From an uncultured virus (IMG/VR IMGVR_UViG_3300033148_007826) (taxonomy: Duplodnaviria > Heunggongvirae > Uroviricota > Caudoviricetes), in IMG/VR virus record IMGVR_UViG_3300033148_007826: DNA of 20,000 nt. The stretch is one strand, 5' to 3'. Numbering within the stretch: position 1 is the stretch's first letter; the number at the start of each line of letters is the position of its first letter. The notes beneath the pieces are model-generated. The model made no database searches. It was not told where the DNA came from and saw nothing but the letters and a program-made list of their open reading frames with translations. The translations under genes and the position numbers were made by a program. Below, piece by piece: positions 3,250 to 19,070 of the stretch.

Positions 3250-3338
3250 TGGTGCTGGAGGGAAGATTCGAACTTCCGACGTTGCCTATGTAGTGATTCC
3301 TAAGACCACCGCATTCGACCTGGCTCTGCTACTCCAGC
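3250..3338 (-). tRNA. tRNA-Leu(TAG) with encoded CCA
   Basis: Acceptor GCTGGAG/CTCCAGC-ACCA, anticodon arm GTGGT-CTTAGGA-ATCAC, long variable region. Confidence 0.92.
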
Positions 3339-3340
3339 TT

Positions 3341-3859
3341 TTAATGTGTGTCGTTATATTCCTGACACCAGTTGATGATGGTTTCCTCAGTCCATTTGAA
3401 ATGACGATTCTTCCGTATGTTTCGAGATTGAATCTTTCCGACAAGCTCTGCCCGCTTCTTCATATCAACCATGTCGTAACCCATATATTGATTTCGTCTT
3501 CCAATTGGCCCCATTGAAATGTATTCGAGCATAACCCCGATATGTGGTTTTTTTATTACTGAGTAGGGAGATATTGTAGTTAATAATTTCTTTAATGATG
3601 GTCTTGCATAAATGCTTATTTCTGCCATTTTGCATCCTGTTCCGTAAGTACGAAATCGGGTATTGTAATTGAGGCCCAGGTCATCAAATATATGTTTAAT
3701 GGTTTGGAACCATTTTCCTTCGGACATAGCGATGCTAAACGAGGGGGTGATGGCTATCCGATTCCCAAATTTTCTTTTTGATTTTCGTGTGATGACGTTG
3801 AAATAAATTGAGCCTTCGCCATCAATCAATCCCGCCATCCAAGCTATTGTGGTAGACAT
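3341..3859 (-). CDS. Free-standing single-motif LAGLIDADG homing endonuclease
   Basis: N-terminal AWMAGLIDGEGSI motif; basic 172-aa protein; lower GC than neighbours; own TATA motif near 3890-3905. Confidence 0.88.
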   Translation of the reverse strand: MSTTIAWMAGLIDGEGSIYFNVITRKSKRKFGNRIAITPSFSIAMSEGKWFQTIKHIFDDLGLNYNTRFRTYGTGCKMAEISIYARPSLKKLLTTISPYSVIKKPHIGVMLEYISMGPIGRRNQYMGYDMVDMKKRAELVGKIQSRNIRKNRHFKWTEETIINWCQEYNDTH

Positions 3860-3911: not shown

Positions 3912-3985
3912 TGAGGGTGACAAAATTCGAACCTGGGGTCACTCGGTTATGAGCCCACCGCATTACCGGGCTCTGCTACGCCAGC
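3912..3985 (-). pseudogene. Mosaic or degenerate tRNA with CAT anticodon
   Basis: Intact D-arm, CTCATAA loop and TTCGAAT loop, but acceptor (GCTGGCG/CACCCTC), anticodon stem (GTGGG/CCGAG) and T-stem (CCAGG/TTTGT) pair poorly. Confidence 0.75.
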
Positions 3986-4541
3986 ATTTACCTATAAAGA
4001 AGTTGATGATAATATCAATCTTCCAGTTGATGAGGGTTCCTAAAGTCGGCCTGAAGATTTTCAATACGCTTGGGGGTATCGTTCCAGAGGGTTTGACCTG
4101 AACCGATGGGATACCCCGGAACAAGCCAACGTCCACACCATTGATGCTGACCGGGAATGTTGGTTCTTTATCCTCTGCCTTGATGTTCGCATCTGGTTCT
4201 ATTGTGCAGCCTTCTTTCAATAGGGTTTCCGCCTCGCATGATACTATCAACACTTTCCCCAGGACTCTTAGACCCCACCAGTTGTGTCTACTTTTCTTGA
4301 CCCGCATCTCACCCCAGGCATATGCTATATTTTCTTTGGTCGTGAAATACAGCATATCTTCTTCCGATTCTGCTTTCCAGGTCTTATCGACCCCCGGACG
4401 CATCCCTTCCCTGGCTATCTTAAGGGCCGTTTTCTTATCAGTGCCATGGTACAATGTGGTTGGCGTGTTGTTCGCCAGCCATGCGGTAAGCTCTGGAAGG
4501 CTTCTGTTCGGGGCAATCACATTTAATGGTATCGGCGTCAT
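3963..4541 (-). CDS. ADP-ribosyltransferase-fold protein (Tpt1/KptA C-terminal-like or PARP-like)
   Basis: LYHGT-x5-LKIAREGMRPG, LYFTT-x3-IAYAWG and VLIVSCEAETLLKEG follow the NAD-binding ART/Tpt1 pattern; RBS AGGTGA. Confidence 0.7.
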   Translation of the reverse strand: MTPIPLNVIAPNRSLPELTAWLANNTPTTLYHGTDKKTALKIAREGMRPGVDKTWKAESEEDMLYFTTKENIAYAWGEMRVKKSRHNWWGLRVLGKVLIVSCEAETLLKEGCTIEPDANIKAEDKEPTFPVSINGVDVGLFRGIPSVQVKPSGTIPPSVLKIFRPTLGTLINWKIDIIINFFIGKCWRSRAR

Positions 4542-4549
4542 TTGCTCAC

Positions 4550-4765
4550 CTATTGACCTCTCGTTCCTGGCGTCCTCTTGTAGCCATGGTGTTTATCGTG
4601 ACAATCCCTACAGAGAATCCTCCAGTTGGATGGAGTGTCCTCGCCACCTTTGGATAAAGGCTTGATATGATGAATGGATAGGTTATTTTCAGCTCCGCAC
4701 TTTGAGCATATCCCTACACGGAGCATTCTGCGGCGTTGCCTGTTAATGTAATTGATGTGACTCAC
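4550..4765 (-). CDS. Small HNH endonuclease
   Basis: CSKCG...IHHIKPLSKGG..TPSNWRILCRDCHDKHH; likely GTG start overlapping the ligase TGA, with GGTGA RBS. Confidence 0.88.
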   Translation of the reverse strand: MSHINYINRQRRRMLRVGICSKCGAENNLSIHHIKPLSKGGEDTPSNWRILCRDCHDKHHGYKRTPGTRGQ

Positions 4766-5433
4766 GCCATCACCACGTTGAATCGGGGAGTTCTGCCCGT
4801 CCAATGTGATTCTTCAGCCAAGTCGTCCAAGAACTCCTGAACGACGAGCTTGCCGAACTGCTTGACCGTATCGGCCTTCACGACGATGCCTTCCATGTTG
4901 GCCACGGTGGAGAATGCCGACCTCTTGTTCTCACAGAGGGGAAGCAGGTCATCGAACTTGACCTTCCCCCTGAACATCACGGGAGCTGTCGTGAATCCGA
5001 GCCCGTTGAGGATTTTTATCTTGCGGTCCTGAGAGATGATGCGGCCAATACCTTCTTCGATAATGTCGAAGGCGATGAACCTGTCTGGAAGCCTGTCATA
5101 CACGATATTGTGCTGAACGTGCGCCCACTCGCCGACGACCCTGGTGTGCCTCGGTATTCCCTCGACCTTTTCGATGTTCGTCCATACCCAAGGCCACGCT
5201 CCTTTGAACTGGGTGCATTTGTCATATTCGGATAAATGCCTGTTCCGAGTGTAGATGACTGGCTTGCCGTTCTTGAAAGCAATAGACATCTGGGAGCCGT
5301 CAATCTTCTCCTCAATTCTGGTATCCCCCTTCAGTAACCTCTTGACCTCACTGGGGTTGAGATAACGCTTATCGTGCCTTGCGGATATGGCGGAATGAGG
5401 TATTCTCAGTGGTTTAGGATACTTCAGTTGCAT
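4762..5433 (-). CDS. ATP-dependent RNA ligase (Rnl2-like nucleotidyltransferase domain)
   Basis: Motif I EEKIDGS, motif Ia YTRNR, motif III GEW, motif IIIa FIAFDI, motif IV EGIVVK, motif V GKLV; no OB-fold domain. Confidence 0.85.
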   Translation of the reverse strand: MQLKYPKPLRIPHSAISARHDKRYLNPSEVKRLLKGDTRIEEKIDGSQMSIAFKNGKPVIYTRNRHLSEYDKCTQFKGAWPWVWTNIEKVEGIPRHTRVVGEWAHVQHNIVYDRLPDRFIAFDIIEEGIGRIISQDRKIKILNGLGFTTAPVMFRGKVKFDDLLPLCENKRSAFSTVANMEGIVVKADTVKQFGKLVVQEFLDDLAEESHWTGRTPRFNVVMA

Positions 5434-5984: not shown

Positions 5985-6059
5985 TGGGACCAGACGGATT
6001 CGAACCGACGACTACCCGGTTATGAGCCGGATGCTCTGACCAGACTAAACTATGGTCCC
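5985..6059 (-). tRNA. tRNA with CAT anticodon, probably tRNA-Ile2 (otherwise elongator Met)
   Basis: Acceptor GGGACCA/TGGTCCC-A, arm TCCGG-CTCATAA-CCGGG; GGG start and overall sequence resemble archaeal Ile2; lacks the initiator A1-U72. Confidence 0.88.
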
Positions 6060-6635
6060 CTAAGTTGGTGGGGAAAACTCCCCGATTACAGGACCGTAGT
6101 AGTCCCCTATTGTTTTCATACCGCCATCATCAGTGGATTGCGTGTCTCCTATAGCGTGTAGAGAGGTGAACAATGATACCCATTTGGCACTGTAATTCGT
6201 TTCATAATCCAGTGTGGCCCCATTCCAGCAAAAATTGGTCAGGTCATAACTTCCACCCGGAACAGCCGGGAAGCCTTTTATTGATTCGATTACTGTGCCA
6301 TCGTCAAAGGTCGTCATTATGACAATCCTCTCAACACTCCGATTCTCTATTCGCTCTTTTACTAATTGAGAATCGTTTACGAAGTATTGGAGCCTATATC
6401 TCCAGCCCCCTTCTAGTTCCATGCCCATTACATTCAGGTTCACTATCTCTGTGGAACAGTTGGCGTAGATGATTTTCCCCATTCCCTCATTTGTGGGGGT
6501 GATGATGAGTTCGGGCTGTTCTTCCGCCTCATTCGTCGTATGCTCATAGACGAATAGCCCGTATGTCGTTGCCATCCCCATGATGAATACACACATGAGA
6601 GCAATGCCCACCGTGATTCTTTCCTTGCCTTTCAT
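6060..6635 (-). CDS. Membrane-anchored or secreted hypothetical protein
   Basis: Likely start MKGKERIT at 6635 (RBS GAGGT); N-terminal TM; the longer listed ORF runs into tRNA-His. Confidence 0.8.
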   Translation of the reverse strand: MKGKERITVGIALMCVFIMGMATTYGLFVYEHTTNEAEEQPELIITPTNEGMGKIIYANCSTEIVNLNVMGMELEGGWRYRLQYFVNDSQLVKERIENRSVERIVIMTTFDDGTVIESIKGFPAVPGGSYDLTNFCWNGATLDYETNYSAKWVSLFTSLHAIGDTQSTDDGGMKTIGDYYGPVIGEFSPPT

Positions 6636-6692
6636 TTTATCAACCTCTTTCGTGTAAGATTGACTAAGGCCGGGGACTTTATATGGTTTTAG

Positions 6693-6764
6693 GGGAAAGA
6701 GCGGGAGTCGAACCCACACTTACAGGGCCACGGTCTGTGGTGCTACCATTACACTATCTTTCCC
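6693..6764 (-). tRNA. tRNA-His(GTG) with encoded G-1
   Basis: G(-1)-GGAAAGA/TCTTTCC-C73; anticodon loop CCGTGGC with atypical C33; T-loop TTCGACT. Confidence 0.88.
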
Positions 6765-6809
6765 ATAGTAATAACGTATTTATATTGATTCATCCATTAT
6801 GTAGGCTCA

Positions 6810-6974
6810 ATGGCATTTCCTGAACCCGTACCAGTCCTTACCGGAGAGCAAGCCGAGGAGTTCGCCCGAAGACTTCGTGATTTCAAGTTGACCGATGAGC
6901 AGAAGGCGTTTTACAGAGAGGCCATGCAGATTCATAGACGACATAAAGATGATGGAAAAAAATACATAAGATGA
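6810..6974 (+). CDS. Small protein, 54 aa (MAFPEPVPVLTGEQAEEFARRL...), possibly antitoxin-like
   Basis: Hand-translated; TATA box (TATTTATAT) about 25 nt upstream. Confidence 0.65.
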   Translation: MAFPEPVPVLTGEQAEEFARRLRDFKLTDEQKAFYREAMQIHRRHKDDGKKYIR

Positions 6975-6975
6975 T

Positions 6976-7207
6976 TCATTCCTCTACTACCGTTTCATTC
7001 ATTTCATCTCGCAGCCATTCGACGAATTCCTCGTCGGTTCGATTCTCGACGAACTTGGCGTAGATTGCTTTGGCGAGATTTTCTCTCGGCTTCGTGTAGC
7101 AGAGGTTTCCGAACGGGTATCCGCTCTTTCCTCCTGGTTGGCGACCTTCTCGTGCTATCTCATCGGTGAAGGCGTAGCCATTCCAGAACGTCCTTTGGAC
7201 TATTCAT
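6976..7207 (-). pseudogene. Small hypothetical gene interrupted by an apparent +1 frameshift
   Basis: Strong RBS GAGGTGA and ATG give only MNSPKDVLEWLRLHR*; the +1 frame continues DEIAREGRQPGGKSGYPFGNLCY...FVEWLRDEMNETVVEE*. Confidence 0.5.
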
Positions 7208-7239
7208 GGCTGTTCACCTCGTTTGTTTTAAAGTGATGA

Positions 7240-7517
7240 TGCCGGGAGCAGGATTTGAACCTGCGATGTTTACCCTACGGTACAGATTTCCCAGAAACAA
7301 GACCATTTGAGTTTGCTCCTCTTTTAAGTTCAAGCCCCAGAGAGCATGGGCCGCACTTTGGTCCGGCCCGGCTATAAAGTTGTCCCTCGGTCCTCTACTC
7401 GATTCATAGAGGGGGTTGTCTCCATAGTCCCCAGGAGTTTACTTGCTTCCGCCTGAGTGCGGCGGAGTCCATGCTCTACTCGGTCTGCTCCAATCGACCT
7501 GGCTCTGGCATCCCGGC
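7240..7517 (-). tRNA. tRNA-Leu(TAA) with two BHB introns (7330-7484 at 30/31; 7288-7322 at 37/38)
   Basis: Acceptor GCCGGGA/TCCCGGC-A; T-arm GCAGG-TTCAAAT-CCTGC; Leu-type variable arm ACCGTAGGGT; removing both introns gives GCAGA-CTTAAAA-TCTGT. Confidence 0.85.
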
Positions 7518-7519
7518 AT

Positions 7520-7830
7520 AAATTAAGAGGCGTGTGACCAACCTGAAGGGGTCCACCCTCATATCATAAGGTGCTAACTTCAGGTCAGGCCAAAAGAGTC
7601 CTCTGTCGCACAGAAGCCGAAACAACGAAACACGGTGACGATATGTTGAAAACAACCCCGGCACAACAAGGAGCCCTTCTAGCAGGCAATTATTGGTGTT
7701 TCCACCAATGAATTCCTAGTATGGATAAAGGAACTCCCGGCGAGATAACGCTTACCCTCGACAGGGCGTTTCGTAAACGCCGAGGGCATTCGTCTATCCC
7801 ATTGTGCCAGTTTCATGTTCCTCATCTCCG
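7520..7830 (-). ncRNA. Unrecognised ~300-nt highly structured RNA
   Basis: At least 8 nested helices with G-U pairs on the minus strand, a GAAA tetraloop, and an upstream TATA promoter at 7851-7870. Confidence 0.65.
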
Positions 7831-7957
7831 AGGTATTCTGTGGTATGTCGTGGGGGTTTAAAAAGATTTCGACAGTCATGCAAACTGTCTTCATCTCGCC
7901 TTAAACGTCACTCTCTTTCTTCTTCCAGTATCATGGTCTTTAACGTAAAATGTGACG

Positions 7958-8419
7958 CTACGGTGTTTCTTCATCATTTATGACCGCCACCCTGAACTTC
8001 CCCCCACTGGCTATCCATTCTTGTAGGATTTCCTTTGAGAGTTCGTCGTAGTAGGTTTCCCGCTCTACGACTATCTCTTGAATCCCCGCCTCTATGAGTT
8101 CCAGCATACAGTCTTTGCATGGGACACCCATAGCGGAGTAAAGAATAGCCCCATGGGTGCATCCGCTACCTATTGCTGTGACCAATAAGACTTTTCGTTC
8201 TGCGTGAAGGGCTCGACAATCCGCATGACCCGCCCAGTCTTTCTTCGTTCTACGACAGCTCTCACAGGGTTTTAGCGGAAGCGGTGGGCCGTTCCAGCCT
8301 GGGATAAGTCTCCCACTTCGTAGTTCGAGAACGCACCCCAAATGTTTCTTTTTACAAGTTGAATTCTTGGAAGCGTTCCTGGCTATTGCCATCCGATTAG
8401 CATCAGTTCTCCCCGTCAT
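7958..8419 (-). CDS. dCMP deaminase family (ComEB-like) zinc deaminase
   Basis: STC..KHLGCV, GWNGPP, LHAE, PCKDC and AGIQEIV motifs. Confidence 0.9.
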   Translation of the reverse strand: MTGRTDANRMAIARNASKNSTCKKKHLGCVLELRSGRLIPGWNGPPLPLKPCESCRRTKKDWAGHADCRALHAERKVLLVTAIGSGCTHGAILYSAMGVPCKDCMLELIEAGIQEIVVERETYYDELSKEILQEWIASGGKFRVAVINDEETP

Positions 8420-8465
8420 GCTTTGGTATTATCTTTGGAGGTTTATATGAATTTCGGGTTGATTT

Positions 8466-8669
8466 TCAGCATCCTTTGGGCGGCGGGGAAACTTCGATAG
8501 ACAAATCACAGACGAATAACCCTTGGTCATTCGCTACAACGGAGCAACCCGCCCCCGTCACTGTTGCATTAGGGCCTAATCCATCCTCAAATTCATTTCT
8601 GAAGCCGTATGCTTCATCCAAAGTTTTTCCTGAAACATGAACCCGGATTTGGGACGTTCCATTTGCCAT
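8466..8669 (-). CDS. Small hypothetical protein
   Basis: 67 aa; leaderless position downstream of the class II promoter at 8689-8710. Confidence 0.7.
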   Translation of the reverse strand: MANGTSQIRVHVSGKTLDEAYGFRNEFEDGLGPNATVTGAGCSVVANDQGLFVCDLSIEVSPPPKGC

Positions 8670-8688
8670 GCTAATTGATTGATGTAGT

Positions 8689-8710
8689 TATATAAATACG
8701 TTTGTAATCA
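8689..8710 (-). promoter_or_regulatory. Class II promoter motif
   Basis: Minus strand TGATTACAAACGTATTTATATA, about 20 nt before ATG 8669. Confidence 0.7.
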
Positions 8711-8713
8711 AAA

Positions 8714-8890
8714 TCAATGGTGCTCCCGAGGTGATGGCTTGCTTATCTTCTGGCATTTAGCAAGTCTGCCCTCTGGGTGCTTCACAAGATGCTTGGTAGC
8801 TATTCCCCAGATGCAGTTATCTTCTTCCTTGAACCTGCACCCGGAGCAGTTCTTGGTCAGATAGATGGGGAATCCGTCCCATCTACTCAA
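8714..8890 (-). CDS. Small Cys-containing protein, 58 aa (TTG start; ...KNCSGCRFKEEDNCIWG...)
   Basis: Hand-translated; GGAGGT RBS upstream of TTG; overlaps the stop of the upstream gene. Confidence 0.6.
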   Translation of the reverse strand: MSRWDGFPIYLTKNCSGCRFKEEDNCIWGIATKHLVKHPEGRLAKCQKISKPSPREHH

Positions 8891-9296
8891 CTTGGGTGAC
8901 CTCCCCCGTGGTACTGTTTATCTCAAAGGTCATTTTCGTTGTGAACCAACCGGGGTTAGGTTCGGCCTCGTAGATAACCTCGTACCAGTCCCAGAACCAT
9001 GTATGAGAGTCCCAACCGCAATATTTCACGTTGTATGTCCCATTGACCTCCAGTTTCGACCACACGTTCCGGTCTATGGCGTGTTGTCCCTTCATGTGTA
9101 CGTTATCCACCTCGAAGACACGGCCATCCTCTGTGACGAGCATATAGAAGCTCTCATCGCCGTTGTTGTCTATGTACTTCTCCTTCACGGTCAGCGTGGT
9201 CGTTTCCGTATGATACCATGACGCCGATATTGATATTGCGGCGATTATCACCAGAGCCACCACGATTATGATTCCGATAGTCTTTTTTTCCATCAT
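8883..9296 (-). CDS. Membrane-anchored or secreted hypothetical protein
   Basis: N-terminal TM followed by a beta-rich domain; RBS GGTGA; class I promoter at 9319-9336. Confidence 0.8.
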   Translation of the reverse strand: MMEKKTIGIIIVVALVIIAAISISASWYHTETTTLTVKEKYIDNNGDESFYMLVTEDGRVFEVDNVHMKGQHAIDRNVWSKLEVNGTYNVKYCGWDSHTWFWDWYEVIYEAEPNPGWFTTKMTFEINSTTGEVTQVE

Positions 9297-11797: not shown

Positions 11798-12157
11798 ATG
11801 GAAATGATAGGTCTATTAATCCTGGGGCATTTGGTCGGCGACTATCTGTTTCAGAACAAGCGCATGGCTGAGGCAAAAGGTTTTTTCACCCTAAGTGGCT
11901 GGTTCTGGTGCGGCCTGCATTCGGCAATCTATTCCATGACCATCTGTTTCTTCTTGTGGAATTTCAATCCCTGGCTGTTCGTGCTGATATTCCTAACACA
12001 CTTTCCGATAGACAAGTTTTCAGTAGCCAGTTGGCTTTTCAAGTTGAAATATCGTGAGAGGGTCGATTTCGATAAGCCAGGACATCTCTTCATCTATGCG
12101 GCCAACGATAATGCGCTTCATCTACTGTTGATGTGGGCTGTCGTGGTGGTGATGTAA
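11798..12157 (+). CDS. DUF3307-family membrane protein
   Basis: GHLVGDYLFQ..MA..K, LHSAIY, THFPID, DNALHL; likely start at 11798 (RBS GGTGA; class I promoter 11752-11771). Confidence 0.8.
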   Translation: MEMIGLLILGHLVGDYLFQNKRMAEAKGFFTLSGWFWCGLHSAIYSMTICFFLWNFNPWLFVLIFLTHFPIDKFSVASWLFKLKYRERVDFDKPGHLFIYAANDNALHLLLMWAVVVVM

Positions 12158-12639
12158 TGAAGACAGCAATCTTTCCAGGGACTTTCGACCCATTTACAAT
12201 CGGACATTTGCATTTGCTTGAGTTCGGTCTTCAGATGTTCGATGAGGTCGTCATCGCTATCTTGGCCAATCCGGGTAAGAAGTCCCGATTCTACATCAAG
12301 GACCGTGTTTCTATGATTTCCGCCGTCATTGAGAAGAACAATTGGCAGAACGTAGAAATCCATGTAAGCAACAAATTGCTCGTGGAAGTGGCCGAGCAAT
12401 ATGGAGCTGATGCCATACTCCGTGGCGTTCGTGGTGCTGAAGACTGCATGATAGAGATTGAAATGGCCCGTGTGAATGCATTACTTAAGCCCGGTTTGAA
12501 GACCGTCCTAATCCCTGCTGATATATCTATCATCAATGTCAGCTCATCCCTTGTACGACTTCTACTTAAGGCAAAGAGATATGCTGATGCTACAGCTCTT
12601 GTCCCCACTCCCGTGCGTCCCTACCTCAAAATGGGGTGA
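12157..12639 (+). CDS. coaD: Phosphopantetheine adenylyltransferase, bacterial type
   Basis: MKTAIFPGTFDPFTIGH, NPGKK, RGVR...D...E..MA.VN, VSSSLVR; TAATG coupling to the DUF3307 gene. Confidence 0.9.
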   Translation: MKTAIFPGTFDPFTIGHLHLLEFGLQMFDEVVIAILANPGKKSRFYIKDRVSMISAVIEKNNWQNVEIHVSNKLLVEVAEQYGADAILRGVRGAEDCMIEIEMARVNALLKPGLKTVLIPADISIINVSSSLVRLLLKAKRYADATALVPTPVRPYLKMG

Positions 12640-17927: not shown

Positions 17928-18995
17928 TTATTCCTTGTCTTCGTCATCTTCCTCTTCGTCCTCATCATCGTCATCGCCAGAGTCGTCGTCCCCGTCATCA
18001 TCCGGGGCTTCATCTCCTTCTTCGTGTCCGTCCTCGGGGCCATCCTCTTCTTCCTCATCCTCGCCCATCGGGTTCGGACTCTCGCCGTGGACGTATTCCG
18101 TCACGGTGTCCTCCGAGATGTCCTTGGTCGGCGTGATGGACAGTACGAAGGCGTCCCCGGCGTTCACCATGATGGTCGGCATATCGCCGATGGGGTGGAC
18201 GCCGTAGAGCATCAGCTTTCCGTCCTTGGCGACGACACGACCATTCTCGATGTCATCGAGGAGGGGGCCTGCGGGGACTCCTTCCTCGACCTCGATGGCG
18301 ATGATGCTGTTGTTGAGTAGACTGGCGTATTCCTCCATGTAGTCCTTCTGGAACTCGTCCAGGGGCATGGGGAGCTTCGCCTGTATCTCATCGCACTTGG
18401 TCTTCTTCTCGACCTCTGCCTTCAGCTTCTCGGCGTACTTGGTAACGTAGTCGTCCAAGTAGGATTGGCTGATTCCTTGGCCGTTCAGGTGGTAGTTTCC
18501 ACCGCCTGTCCTGCGAGTCACCACGAGGCCGCTTCCCATCGGGTGGCCTATCTGGTGTCCATCGTCCTTGTCGTAGACGGTGAGTGCATCCATGGGGAAC
18601 ATACCCCGGATGAGCTTGGCATTGCGGAGCCCGATGAGAACTATCGCCATCTTGTCCTTGTAGCCGATGACGGTCCCGTACCTTCCATGCTCGGAGGTGG
18701 AATAGCTCTTGTTGAGCGGGGTCACCACGTTCTTCCCGATGCCGGGGAGTCCTCTTGGGTGATGCGGTTCGCCCTTGGGTATCTTGATTCGGACCTCAGT
18801 GCCTCCCCGTAGGAACGTCAGCAGTGAGGCGTTCTGGTTCAGCCCCTTTTCCTTGAGTTCTCCGCCCAGGAGTGAGAGGTTGTCACTCAGCAGAGCCGGG
18901 GAAATCCCTTCTGCCAGCCTCGCCTCGAAACCCTTTCCTTTCTCCACCAGAGCGGATACAAAGCCCACTATTGCCAGATATATGTCAGTGTCCAT
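17928..18995 (-). CDS. Hypothetical protein with long D/E-rich C-terminal tail
   Basis: 355 aa; RBS GGTGA; high GC3; class I-like promoter at 19022-19040. Confidence 0.85.
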   Translation of the reverse strand: MDTDIYLAIVGFVSALVEKGKGFEARLAEGISPALLSDNLSLLGGELKEKGLNQNASLLTFLRGGTEVRIKIPKGEPHHPRGLPGIGKNVVTPLNKSYSTSEHGRYGTVIGYKDKMAIVLIGLRNAKLIRGMFPMDALTVYDKDDGHQIGHPMGSGLVVTRRTGGGNYHLNGQGISQSYLDDYVTKYAEKLKAEVEKKTKCDEIQAKLPMPLDEFQKDYMEEYASLLNNSIIAIEVEEGVPAGPLLDDIENGRVVAKDGKLMLYGVHPIGDMPTIMVNAGDAFVLSITPTKDISEDTVTEYVHGESPNPMGEDEEEEDGPEDGHEEGDEAPDDDGDDDSGDDDDEDEEEDDEDKE

Positions 18996-19070
18996 CGTGT
19001 CACCAAAATTACCTAATAGCTTGGGGGTTTAAGTACATTTTGTTTGTTATCTATTTTGAGGCGAGGGGGA

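Follow-up and report, generated by a model that had tools for sequence, protein, structure and literature searches.

Introduction

Multiple tRNA introns, introns at non-canonical sites and introns with relaxed splice motifs are tied to archaea whose splicing endonuclease EndA carries specificity loops, i.e. the (αβ)2 and ε2 types (PMC5829648, PMC6379350). As far as the cited accounts go, α4 and α'2 enzymes are narrow in their specificity, and relaxed motifs are cut efficiently only by (αβ)2 and ε2 enzymes with the CSL and ASL loops (PMC4090602, PMC6379350, PMC5829648). In the 'Cluster II' Euryarchaeota, whose enzymes are of the α'2 type, nearly all introns are considered canonical (PMC5829648, PMC6379350). 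The closest case is the pre-tRNA-Glu(UUC) of Methanopyrus kandleri with two introns, a relaxed HBh' intron at position 20b/21 and a canonical one at 37/38; the loop-less EndA of this organism is described as cutting its own HBh' intron weakly (PMC5829648). For viruses, an intron has been reported in one of the 34 tRNA genes of the archaeal tailed virus HGTV-1 (PMC13532342). In our literature searches no two-intron tRNA and no tRNA with an intron at a non-canonical site turned up on an archaeal virus. Here we describe a probable tRNA-Leu(UAA) gene of this kind, with two introns and a micro-exon of 7 nt, in a stretch of 20,000 nt (hereafter called the window) from the uncultured virus record IMGVR_UViG_3300033148_007826.

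Similar to the tRNA-Glu of M. kandleri, this tRNA from the euryarchaeal side combines one relaxed HBh' intron at a non-canonical site with one canonical intron, and the endonuclease in question apparently has no specificity loops. In contrast to the cited description of M. kandleri, where the extra intron is located in the D-loop, the extra intron of our gene interrupts the anticodon stem and is separated from the canonical intron by just 7 nt, which leaves the anticodon on a micro-exon. The enzyme of M. kandleri is of the (αβ)2 type, whereas the genomes related to our locus encode a single two-unit α'2-like protein, and the gene is chromosomal there but part of a virus-like tRNA array here. 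The multi-intron tRNAs of Thermoproteales, other TACK archaea and ARMAN are, according to the cited reports, likewise interrupted by BHB (bulge-helix-bulge)-type introns, two or three per gene, at non-canonical sites and with relaxed hBH or HBh' motifs (PMC4090602, PMC6379350). The broad (αβ)2 or ε2 EndA with CSL or ASL loops found in those archaea does, however, apparently not occur in the lineage linked to our element. With HGTV-1 the locus has in common that an archaeal virus-type element carries a large tRNA array with an intron-bearing tRNA in it; the cited account reports a single intron there, compared to two here.

Results and Discussion

At positions 7240–7517 on the minus strand the 5' part (33 nt) and the 3' part (48 nt) of a class II tRNA-Leu are separated by 197 nt. 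The uninterrupted sister gene tRNA-Leu(UAG) of the same window served as reference for the class II body. Exon 1 leads from the acceptor 5' strand GCCGGGA through U8-G9 and the D-arm (CCAG / AGCCAGGUCGA / UUGG) to A26 and GCAG. Exon 3 comprises A-UCUGU, a variable region of 17 nt, the T-arm (GCAGG UUCAAAU CCUGC), UCCCGGC and A73. With this variable region, A73, the anticodon UAA and a D-loop identical to that of tRNA-Leu(UAG) the gene shows the features of a class II tRNA-Leu. The 3'-terminal CCA is not encoded and TCA follows directly after A73. An earlier note on this DNA had proposed a tRNA-Leu(UAA) with introns at 30/31 and 37/38 on both sides of a 7-nt micro-exon, ACUUAAA. The coordinates and motifs it named are all present (Table 1), and the arrangement is the sole result with a canonical anticodon loop in the enumeration described below. 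We consider it likely that the locus is a working class II tRNA-Leu(UAA) gene with two protein-spliced BHB-type introns, placed in the tRNA array of a virus-like archaeal element.

Intron 1 is built around a central helix of 4 bp, GAGC (7490–7487) / GCUU (7335–7332), flanked by the bulges AGA (7486–7484, cut AG^A) and GAA (7331–7329, cut GA^A). It continues into a long inner stem, CCGAG-U-AGAGCAUGG / CCAUGCUCUCUGGG (7483–7469 / 7349–7336), with 13 bp and a G.G mismatch in addition to the bulged U. An AC repeat at both ends of the intron means that cleavage at 30/31, 31/32 or 32/33 would give the identical product, and the BHB geometry fits 30/31 only. The outer helix is restricted to 1 bp in the window and to 0 bp in the two homologues L041 and L050 introduced below, compared to at least 2 bp in a strict hBHBh' motif. 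With central and inner helix present, the outer helix absent and a site at 30/31 rather than 37/38, intron 1 is of the relaxed HBh' form and not a full BHB.

In intron 2 the central helix is formed by CUUA (7328–7325), which belongs to the micro-exon, and UGGG (7293–7290), with the 3' bulge AAA (7289–7287). The conserved inner helix GGAGCAA (7319–7313) / UUGUUUC (7300–7294) leaves a 5' bulge of 5 nt, AAAGA (7324–7320). A register with a 3-nt 5' bulge can be drawn for the window, but two of its four inner-helix pairs are broken in the homologues. In the primary transcript the outer helix is a single base pair; removal of intron 1 extends it to the 5 bp of the anticodon stem, and only then does intron 2 attain the outer helix of a strict motif. 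Both introns thus show two bulges around a 4-bp helix, intron 2 with a 3-nt 5' bulge only in the register that is not conserved. The description of both introns as BHB in the earlier note therefore holds for helices and bulges and has to be relaxed to HBh' for intron 1; of the AA^A bulges that it assigned to intron 2, the 3' AAA stands, and the 5' bulge has 5 nt in the conserved register.

Standard tRNA searches do not report the gene. ARAGORN in default mode called seven further tRNAs in the window and nothing at 7240–7517. Rfam at the gathering score found the same seven and no match at this position either; at a relaxed threshold a partial tRNA match of 15.6 bits on the 3' part (7240–7295) appeared and nothing more. 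ARAGORN with introns allowed, suggested in the note as a check, solely called a Ser(GGA) tRNA with C33 and a 190-nt intron on the precursor. The product obtained by removal of both introns in silico was called as tRNA-Leu(UAA), with a canonical cloverleaf and an anticodon loop of 7 nt. The T-loop motif GTTCRAMTC occurs eight times in the window compared to 0.92 expected occurrences, namely in the seven annotated tRNAs and in tRNA-Leu(UAA).

Loose BHB look-alikes are frequent. Requiring 4 bp (G-U allowed), two 3-nt bulges and one flanking helix of 2 bp, 664 helix-plus-bulge candidates were counted in the 278 nt, and a single motif alone is therefore no evidence. All combinations of one or two introns that leave a 5-bp stem and a 7-nt loop between the fixed parts of the tRNA body were enumerated. 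With perfect 4-bp helices, U33 and a purine at position 37 (R37), one solution was obtained in the window and also in L050: the two-intron reading with the loop CUUAAAA, in either order of removal. One further combination in the window gives the non-canonical loop GACGAAA. Single-intron readings were rejected: the Ser(GGA) call of ARAGORN carries C33, and a single-intron solution with perfect helices was not obtained. In 600 dinucleotide-preserving shuffles of the spacer, for which a 5-bp stem, U33, R37 and one or two introns were required, 45 gave any valid solution and two gave a Leu anticodon.

To find homologues, the precursor was compared by BLAST (E <= 0.001) to 401 genomes of the class that holds the metagenome-assembled genome (MAG) G001. 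Seven genomes matched. Six of these show short T-arm/acceptor matches to ordinary tRNA genes, five of which are called tRNA-Leu(CAA) by ARAGORN. Only in the archaeal genome G063 does the match continue through intron 2 into exon 3 (81% over 69 nt). This chromosomal homologue, L041, was joined by a second one on a metagenome contig, L050, found with a pattern drawn from the window and L041 sequences. In further genome samples, a homologue is present in one of five genomes of the family and in one of six of the order of G063, in both cases G063 itself, and the micro-exon pattern occurs in none of 401 genomes of a phylum sample. BLAST of the pre-tRNA against five genomes that encode relatives of a 584-aa open reading frame (ORF) of the window gave chance matches of 15–19 nt only. 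On viral contigs, two of three tRNA-derived patterns had no match and the third had 12 chance matches in coding DNA; a pattern of the 3' acceptor and T-arm was found on four unrelated contigs (three tRNA-Tyr and one tRNA-like stretch that ARAGORN does not call). Copies of intron 1 were found neither elsewhere in the window nor in any locus examined.

Three positions distinguish L041 from L050; two of them fall in the 5-nt bulge at the 5' end of intron 2, the third in the variable loop. Both have an exon 1 of 33 nt, an intron 1 of 31 nt that consists of the inner hairpin only, and an intron 2 of 45 nt in which 14 nt are duplicated in tandem. Compared to them, intron 1 of the window holds about 124 nt extra. 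The micro-exon ACUUAAA is identical in both (7/7), and the junction of intron 2 with exon 3, ...CUGGGAA^AUCUGU, is common to all three sequences. Between the window and L041, 22 of 33 positions are identical in exon 1 and 38 of 49 aligned columns in exon 3.

Base pairs were counted by a script at hand-set homologous positions, as MAFFT misplaced the large indel of the three precursors. Six pairs of the exon stems are changed on both sides, three in the acceptor stem, two in the D stem and one in the T stem. The intron 1 helix is fully paired (4/4) in all three sequences (GAGC/GCUU versus GGGC/GCUC) with two one-sided changes, and its inner stem shows one change on both sides, C-G to U-A, with the 1x1 mismatch kept at the same place. 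In intron 2 the helix CUUA/UGGG is invariant and the inner helix (GAGCAA / UUGUUU or UUGCUC) is kept via two G-U to G-C changes. The same layout in two relatives, together with compensatory change in the exon stems, suggests a working gene and is in accordance with the identity as tRNA-Leu(UAA) given in the note. By parsimony, the common ancestor would already have had both introns, and the gene would have been under selection as a tRNA since.

L041 lies in a 3-kb island of the G063 chromosome with about 20 tRNA hits and an HNH ORF, flanked by ordinary surface-protein genes. ARAGORN in intron mode found an intron in 17 of 21 tRNA genes within 20 long-hit loci of this chromosome. The tRNA-Leu(CAA) (L079) and a further tRNA-Leu(UAA) (L075) of G063 share with our gene the 3' strand of the anticodon stem, the intron at 37/38 and a very similar 3' end of this intron (...UGGGAC^AUCUGU, as in tRNA-Leu(CAA), versus ...UGGGAA^AUCUGU in intron 2). 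They differ in that they have one intron and an anticodon loop contiguous with exon 1.

Some further tRNAs of G063 are irregular. Those of the island missed by ARAGORN carry insertions of about 25–90 nt (L049 810–1014, 1408–1532 and 1632–1728; L048 18571–18731). By eye, some insertions lie outside the anticodon loop, such as about 30 nt in the variable region of two genes that resemble Ile(UAU) and Gln(UUG), respectively. These insertions may be further non-canonical introns; a strict BHB scan of the irregular island tRNAs gave no clean solutions. At L074 of the chromosome, the D-arm of a class II tRNA, by eye Ser(GCU), is enlarged by about 20 inserted nucleotides, and a tRNA-Leu(UAA) of bacterial appearance, L082, is present in the same archaeal genome.

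With the homologues at hand, the possibility of one long intron can be weighed. A single intron at the canonical position 37/38 with the same 3' splice site, 190 nt long in the window and 76 nt in the homologues, would lead to tRNA-Leu(GAG) in the window and tRNA-Leu(AAG) in the homologues, instead of or alongside tRNA-Leu(UAA), and to the junction GCAGACCGAGU joined to AUCUGU. Its pseudo anticodon loop would consist of the first 7 nt after the 5' strand of the anticodon stem, i.e. CCGAGUA in the window (within 7483–7469) and CUAAGAA in L041 and L050 (pre-tRNA 35–41). If one helix mismatch is allowed, this reading is obtained with cuts at 40/230 in the window (helix 3/4, outer helix 5 bp, inner helix 3 bp) and at 40/116 in L050 (helix 3/4, outer 6, inner 5), and it is among the solutions listed for L041. 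The outer helix would be the intact anticodon stem, which is preferred by narrow EndA. The homologue loop CUAAGAA is canonical with U33 and A37, GAG and AAG are both Leu anticodons, and CUC and CUU, the commonest Leu codons of the window, together account for 41% of them. The loop of the window would, however, have C33 and U37 and the homologue anticodon AAG would need A34; to our knowledge, C33 and U37 are nearly unknown in working tRNAs and A34 is not used by archaea. Moreover, positions 33, 34 and 37 of this loop differ between the lineages, whereas the micro-exon is invariant, and the variation instead tracks the pairing of the intron 1 inner stem (C-G to U-A). The fold costs 13 kcal/mol (window) or 7 kcal/mol (L041) more than the intron 1 fold and contains a G.G or A.G mismatch in its helix. 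UGGG pairs perfectly with CUUA of the micro-exon, and G or A at position 34 would mismatch, so the intron 2 helix suits the micro-exon rather than the pseudo-loop at the start of intron 1. Taken together, we regard a single long intron as quite improbable, although its alternative use is conceivable in the homologues.

In bacteria, group I introns classically reside in tRNA-Leu(UAA). In a further alternative the spacer would be self-splicing, either a group I intron as in the tRNA-Leu(UAA) of cyanobacteria and plastids or another ribozyme, and the element would be a bacteriophage. The spacer is indeed strongly structured (z = -2.99) and homing-endonuclease ORFs are located nearby. Over 7100–7700, however, no Rfam intron or ribozyme family matched at E values up to 10, no single contiguous intron restores the canonical loop CUUAAAA, and a group I core would by far not fit into the homologue spacers of 31 and 45 nt. 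The setting, furthermore, is archaeal. A group I intron was rejected on the first three grounds and another ribozyme on the Rfam result, and we consider a self-splicing spacer extremely improbable.

For the preferred reading with two protein-spliced introns, the following course of events would be expected. Host EndA would cut within the bulges and the host ligase RtcB would join the exons. The introns would be removed in succession, most likely intron 1 first, after which intron 2 would become an ordinary anticodon-arm BHB as soon as the anticodon stem has closed. This order is reasonable because intron 2 gains its 5-bp outer helix only then. The ordered splicing predicted in the note is therefore plausible, but it is not forced by the sequence, and the enumeration accepts both orders. 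If all four cuts preceded any ligation, only A31-U39 would retain the 7-nt exon, which would come off and be lost; the introns would therefore have to be removed one after the other.

Folding energies bear on the same question. The unconstrained minimum free energy (MFE) amounts to -111.2 kcal/mol for the window precursor and -54.2 kcal/mol for L041. Enforcing the intron 1 fold yields -109.4 and -50.2 kcal/mol, a cost of 1.8 and 4.0 kcal/mol, respectively. In the window both 4-bp helices together give -101.0 kcal/mol and the cloverleaf plus the intron 2 motif -93.9 kcal/mol. A cloverleaf can be drawn with intron 1 as an inserted domain. In the MFE structures of both precursors the D-arm pairs with intron 2, with one position changed from C-G to A-U between them; this pairing may be due to chance or may be an intron-exon pairing that delays folding.

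Concerning the enzyme, one EndA ORF of 360–371 aa with two PF01974 repeats was found in G063 and in each of three of the four searched MAGs that carry relatives of a window protein. The EndA of the G063 type (L052 1459–2547) is predicted to be a two-unit, α'2-like enzyme. The G063 protein can be aligned end to end with the fused β-α chain of M. kandleri (5X89), and a gap-free alignment joins its catalytic half to most of the α4 chain of Methanocaldococcus jannaschii. The earlier note had suggested that the gene would constrain the host to an EndA of relaxed specificity or imply splicing enzymes of the element itself. The first suggestion finds no support in the two-repeat enzymes of the homologue genome and the three MAGs; for the second, a search of the 20-kb window revealed neither endA nor rtcB. 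Intron 1 should be hard to cut for the EndA of the likely host. A possible way out lies in the central helix of intron 2, since CUUA, directly after the 3' bulge of intron 1, pairs with UGGG and could replace the missing outer helix of intron 1.

Several observations weigh against a working two-intron gene. Most directly, intron 1 has no outer helix while the only EndA found in the genome of the homologue and in three MAGs belonging to its class is two-unit and α'2-like, and in the cited reports α'2-type EndA cuts relaxed motifs poorly or not at all (PMC4090602, PMC6379350, PMC5829648). In a residue-by-residue comparison, made for the G063 enzyme only, about 10 residues are missing where the chains of Aeropyrum pernix, Sulfolobus tokodaii and ARMAN-2 have an insert that would correspond to the specificity loop. 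The MFE structure contains no cloverleaf and pairs the D-arm of exon 1 (7488–7508) with the 3' half of intron 2 (7289–7311), and the fold with cloverleaf and intron 2 motif lies 17 kcal/mol above it. The 5' bulge of intron 2 has 5 nt in the sole conserved register (AAAGA in the window, AAGGU or AAAGC in the homologues). Because L041 and L050 are near-identical with three differences, only two independent lineages are compared and the covariation counts are accordingly small. With about 70–78% identity in the exons and intron 2, a micro-exon identical at 7/7 positions is unremarkable, and the Leu codon use of the window (CUC 27.7%, UUA 10.6%) singles out no need for a UAA anticodon.

Some of these points support the view of a dead or dying gene, in which an ordinary tRNA-Leu with a 37/38 intron was hit by an insertion into the anticodon stem that a narrow EndA could not remove, so that no mature tRNA would be formed. 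The absent outer helix of intron 1 fits this view, as do the two-unit EndA of the related genomes, without specificity-loop-like insert in G063, and the about 124 additional nucleotides within intron 1. Efficient cleavage of relaxed motifs is, in the cited reports, a property of (αβ)2 and ε2 enzymes only (PMC6379350, PMC5829648). Yet the acceptor, T and anticodon stems have remained perfect through six changes on both sides, despite 11 differences in the 33 nt of exon 1, and both splice-site helices as well as the micro-exon were kept in two lineages, which is unexpected for a pseudogene. Furthermore, the loop-less EndA of M. kandleri is described as still maturing, if inefficiently, its two-intron tRNA-Glu with an HBh' intron (PMC5829648). 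Loss of function therefore appears unlikely to us.

It is also conceivable, as a long shot, that the gene has two outputs by way of two mutually exclusive folds, in which tandem short-range motifs would lead to tRNA-Leu(UAA) and a long-range pairing to tRNA-Leu(NAG). With the start of intron 1 paired locally, in the inner stem and GAGC/GCUU, the short-range motifs would form a tandem array of inner stem, bulge, helix 1, bulge, helix 2, bulge and inner stem, each helix acting as the outer helix of the other, and such an array would let a narrow two-unit EndA excise the non-canonical intron. In the other fold, these nucleotides of intron 1 (C-C/U-G/A-A-G) would instead pair long-range with UGGG of intron 2, and a single canonical intron at 37/38 would be removed. 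If such a gene existed, the longer intron 1 of the window (155 nt, inner stem of 13 bp) would fix the outcome in favour of UAA.

The surroundings of the tRNA-Leu(UAA) gene are summarized in Table 1. In addition to the tRNAs, the window encodes a LAGLIDADG ORF, an HNH ORF, a PF09414 RNA ligase, a dCMP deaminase, a helicase, a DUF1643 protein and a CoaD-like adenylyltransferase. In tblastn the HNH frame (4553–4813) is 42.6% identical over 61 aa to a small opposite-strand ORF in the tRNA island of G063. The Atlas neighbours of ORF 3963–4541 are DUF3990, DUF4433/DarT, Arr and RNA 2'-phosphotransferase, and the NCBIfam model Tpt1/KptA matches it at E 0.0018 over 27 residues; relatives by sequence were not found except for a repeat in one protein of 3,923 aa. 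At 18001–19000, a region that covers ORF 17928–18995, the G+C content rises to 58% compared to 42–53% in the rest of the window, and for this ORF neither a family nor a phage protein match was found.

Table 1. Coordinates of the tRNA-Leu(UAA) gene and of other features of the window.
Feature	Position	Strand	Description	Basis
Exon 1	7517-7485	minus	33 nt: acceptor 5' strand, D-arm, position 26, anticodon-stem nucleotides 27-30	sequence; ARAGORN cloverleaf of in-silico spliced product
Intron 1	7484-7330	minus	155 nt, tRNA position 30/31, relaxed HBh' motif	
Micro-exon ACUUAAA	7329-7323	minus	tRNA positions 31-37; carries A31, U33, anticodon UAA, A37	
Intron 2	7322-7288	minus	35 nt, canonical position 37/38	
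Exon 3	7287-7240	minus	48 nt: A38, anticodon-stem 3' strand UCUGU, variable region, T-arm, acceptor 3' strand, A73	
tRNA-Leu(UAG), uninterrupted sister gene	3250-3338	minus	same D-loop AGCCAGGUCGA, similar variable region	
tRNA-Tyr	296-368	minus	class I, 72 nt, C1-G72	
LAGLIDADG ORF	3341-3859	minus	interleaved with tRNA genes; directly upstream of tRNA-Leu(UAG)	
192-aa ORF	3963-4541	minus	ADP-ribosyltransferase-like fold; beside RNA ligase in tRNA array	
HNH endonuclease ORF	4550-4804	minus	interleaved with tRNA genes	
RNA ligase	4762-5433	minus	interleaved with tRNA genes; PF09414 E 7.6e-22; weak match to Pab1020; unrelated to endA/rtcB	
CoaD-like (pantetheine-phosphate adenylyltransferase) ORF	12133-12639	plus	TIGR01510 135 bits, cut-off 103	

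The window covers 20 kb of an element of about 135 kb, the 584-aa ORF being recorded on a contig of 135,265 nt. MAGs with the labels Thermoplasmata, Methanomassiliicoccales or Methanobacteriota encode relatives of this ORF (45–51% identity) on contigs that reach about 120 kb, and distant relatives occur in Lactobacillus myophages. No tRNA array was found near the relatives on the MAG contigs. Scans of viral contigs revealed no relative of ORF 6060–6719, none with an alignment of the 584-aa ORF as query and only short, distant matches for the dCMP deaminase, and phage records gave no DNA match for 6000–9000. A class I tRNA-Tyr with C1-G72, as present in the window, is the archaeal and eukaryal form. 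The MAG-borne relatives together with this tRNA-Tyr make it likely that the element belongs to a Thermoplasmata-like archaeon, as a virus or as a large mobile element of another kind, and the host is probably of the Thermoplasmata/Methanomassiliicoccales kind. The assignment as a probable virus in the note is in accordance with the tRNA array, the HNH and LAGLIDADG ORFs, the PHROG matches (helicase, dCMP deaminase and RNA ligase) and the myophage relatives; capsid, terminase and portal genes, on the other hand, were not found among the 25 ORFs of the window with Pfam and PHROGs.

Conclusion

The locus points towards a gap in the inventory of archaeal virus tRNAs, since ARAGORN and Rfam missed the tRNA-Leu(UAA) as well as several irregular tRNAs of the G063 island; standard finders thus under-count such tRNA sets. 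For the splicing machinery, the 7-nt exon would impose a kinetic rule, namely to cut, to ligate and to cut again. If the gene is spliced, either the substrate range of the two-unit EndA is wider than assumed, or the helix that intron 1 lacks comes from the neighbouring canonical motif. The relaxed intron of the anticodon stem, with its canonical neighbour at a distance of 7 nt, is conserved between a virus-like element and a tRNA island of an archaeal chromosome for which a two-unit EndA is the only one detected.

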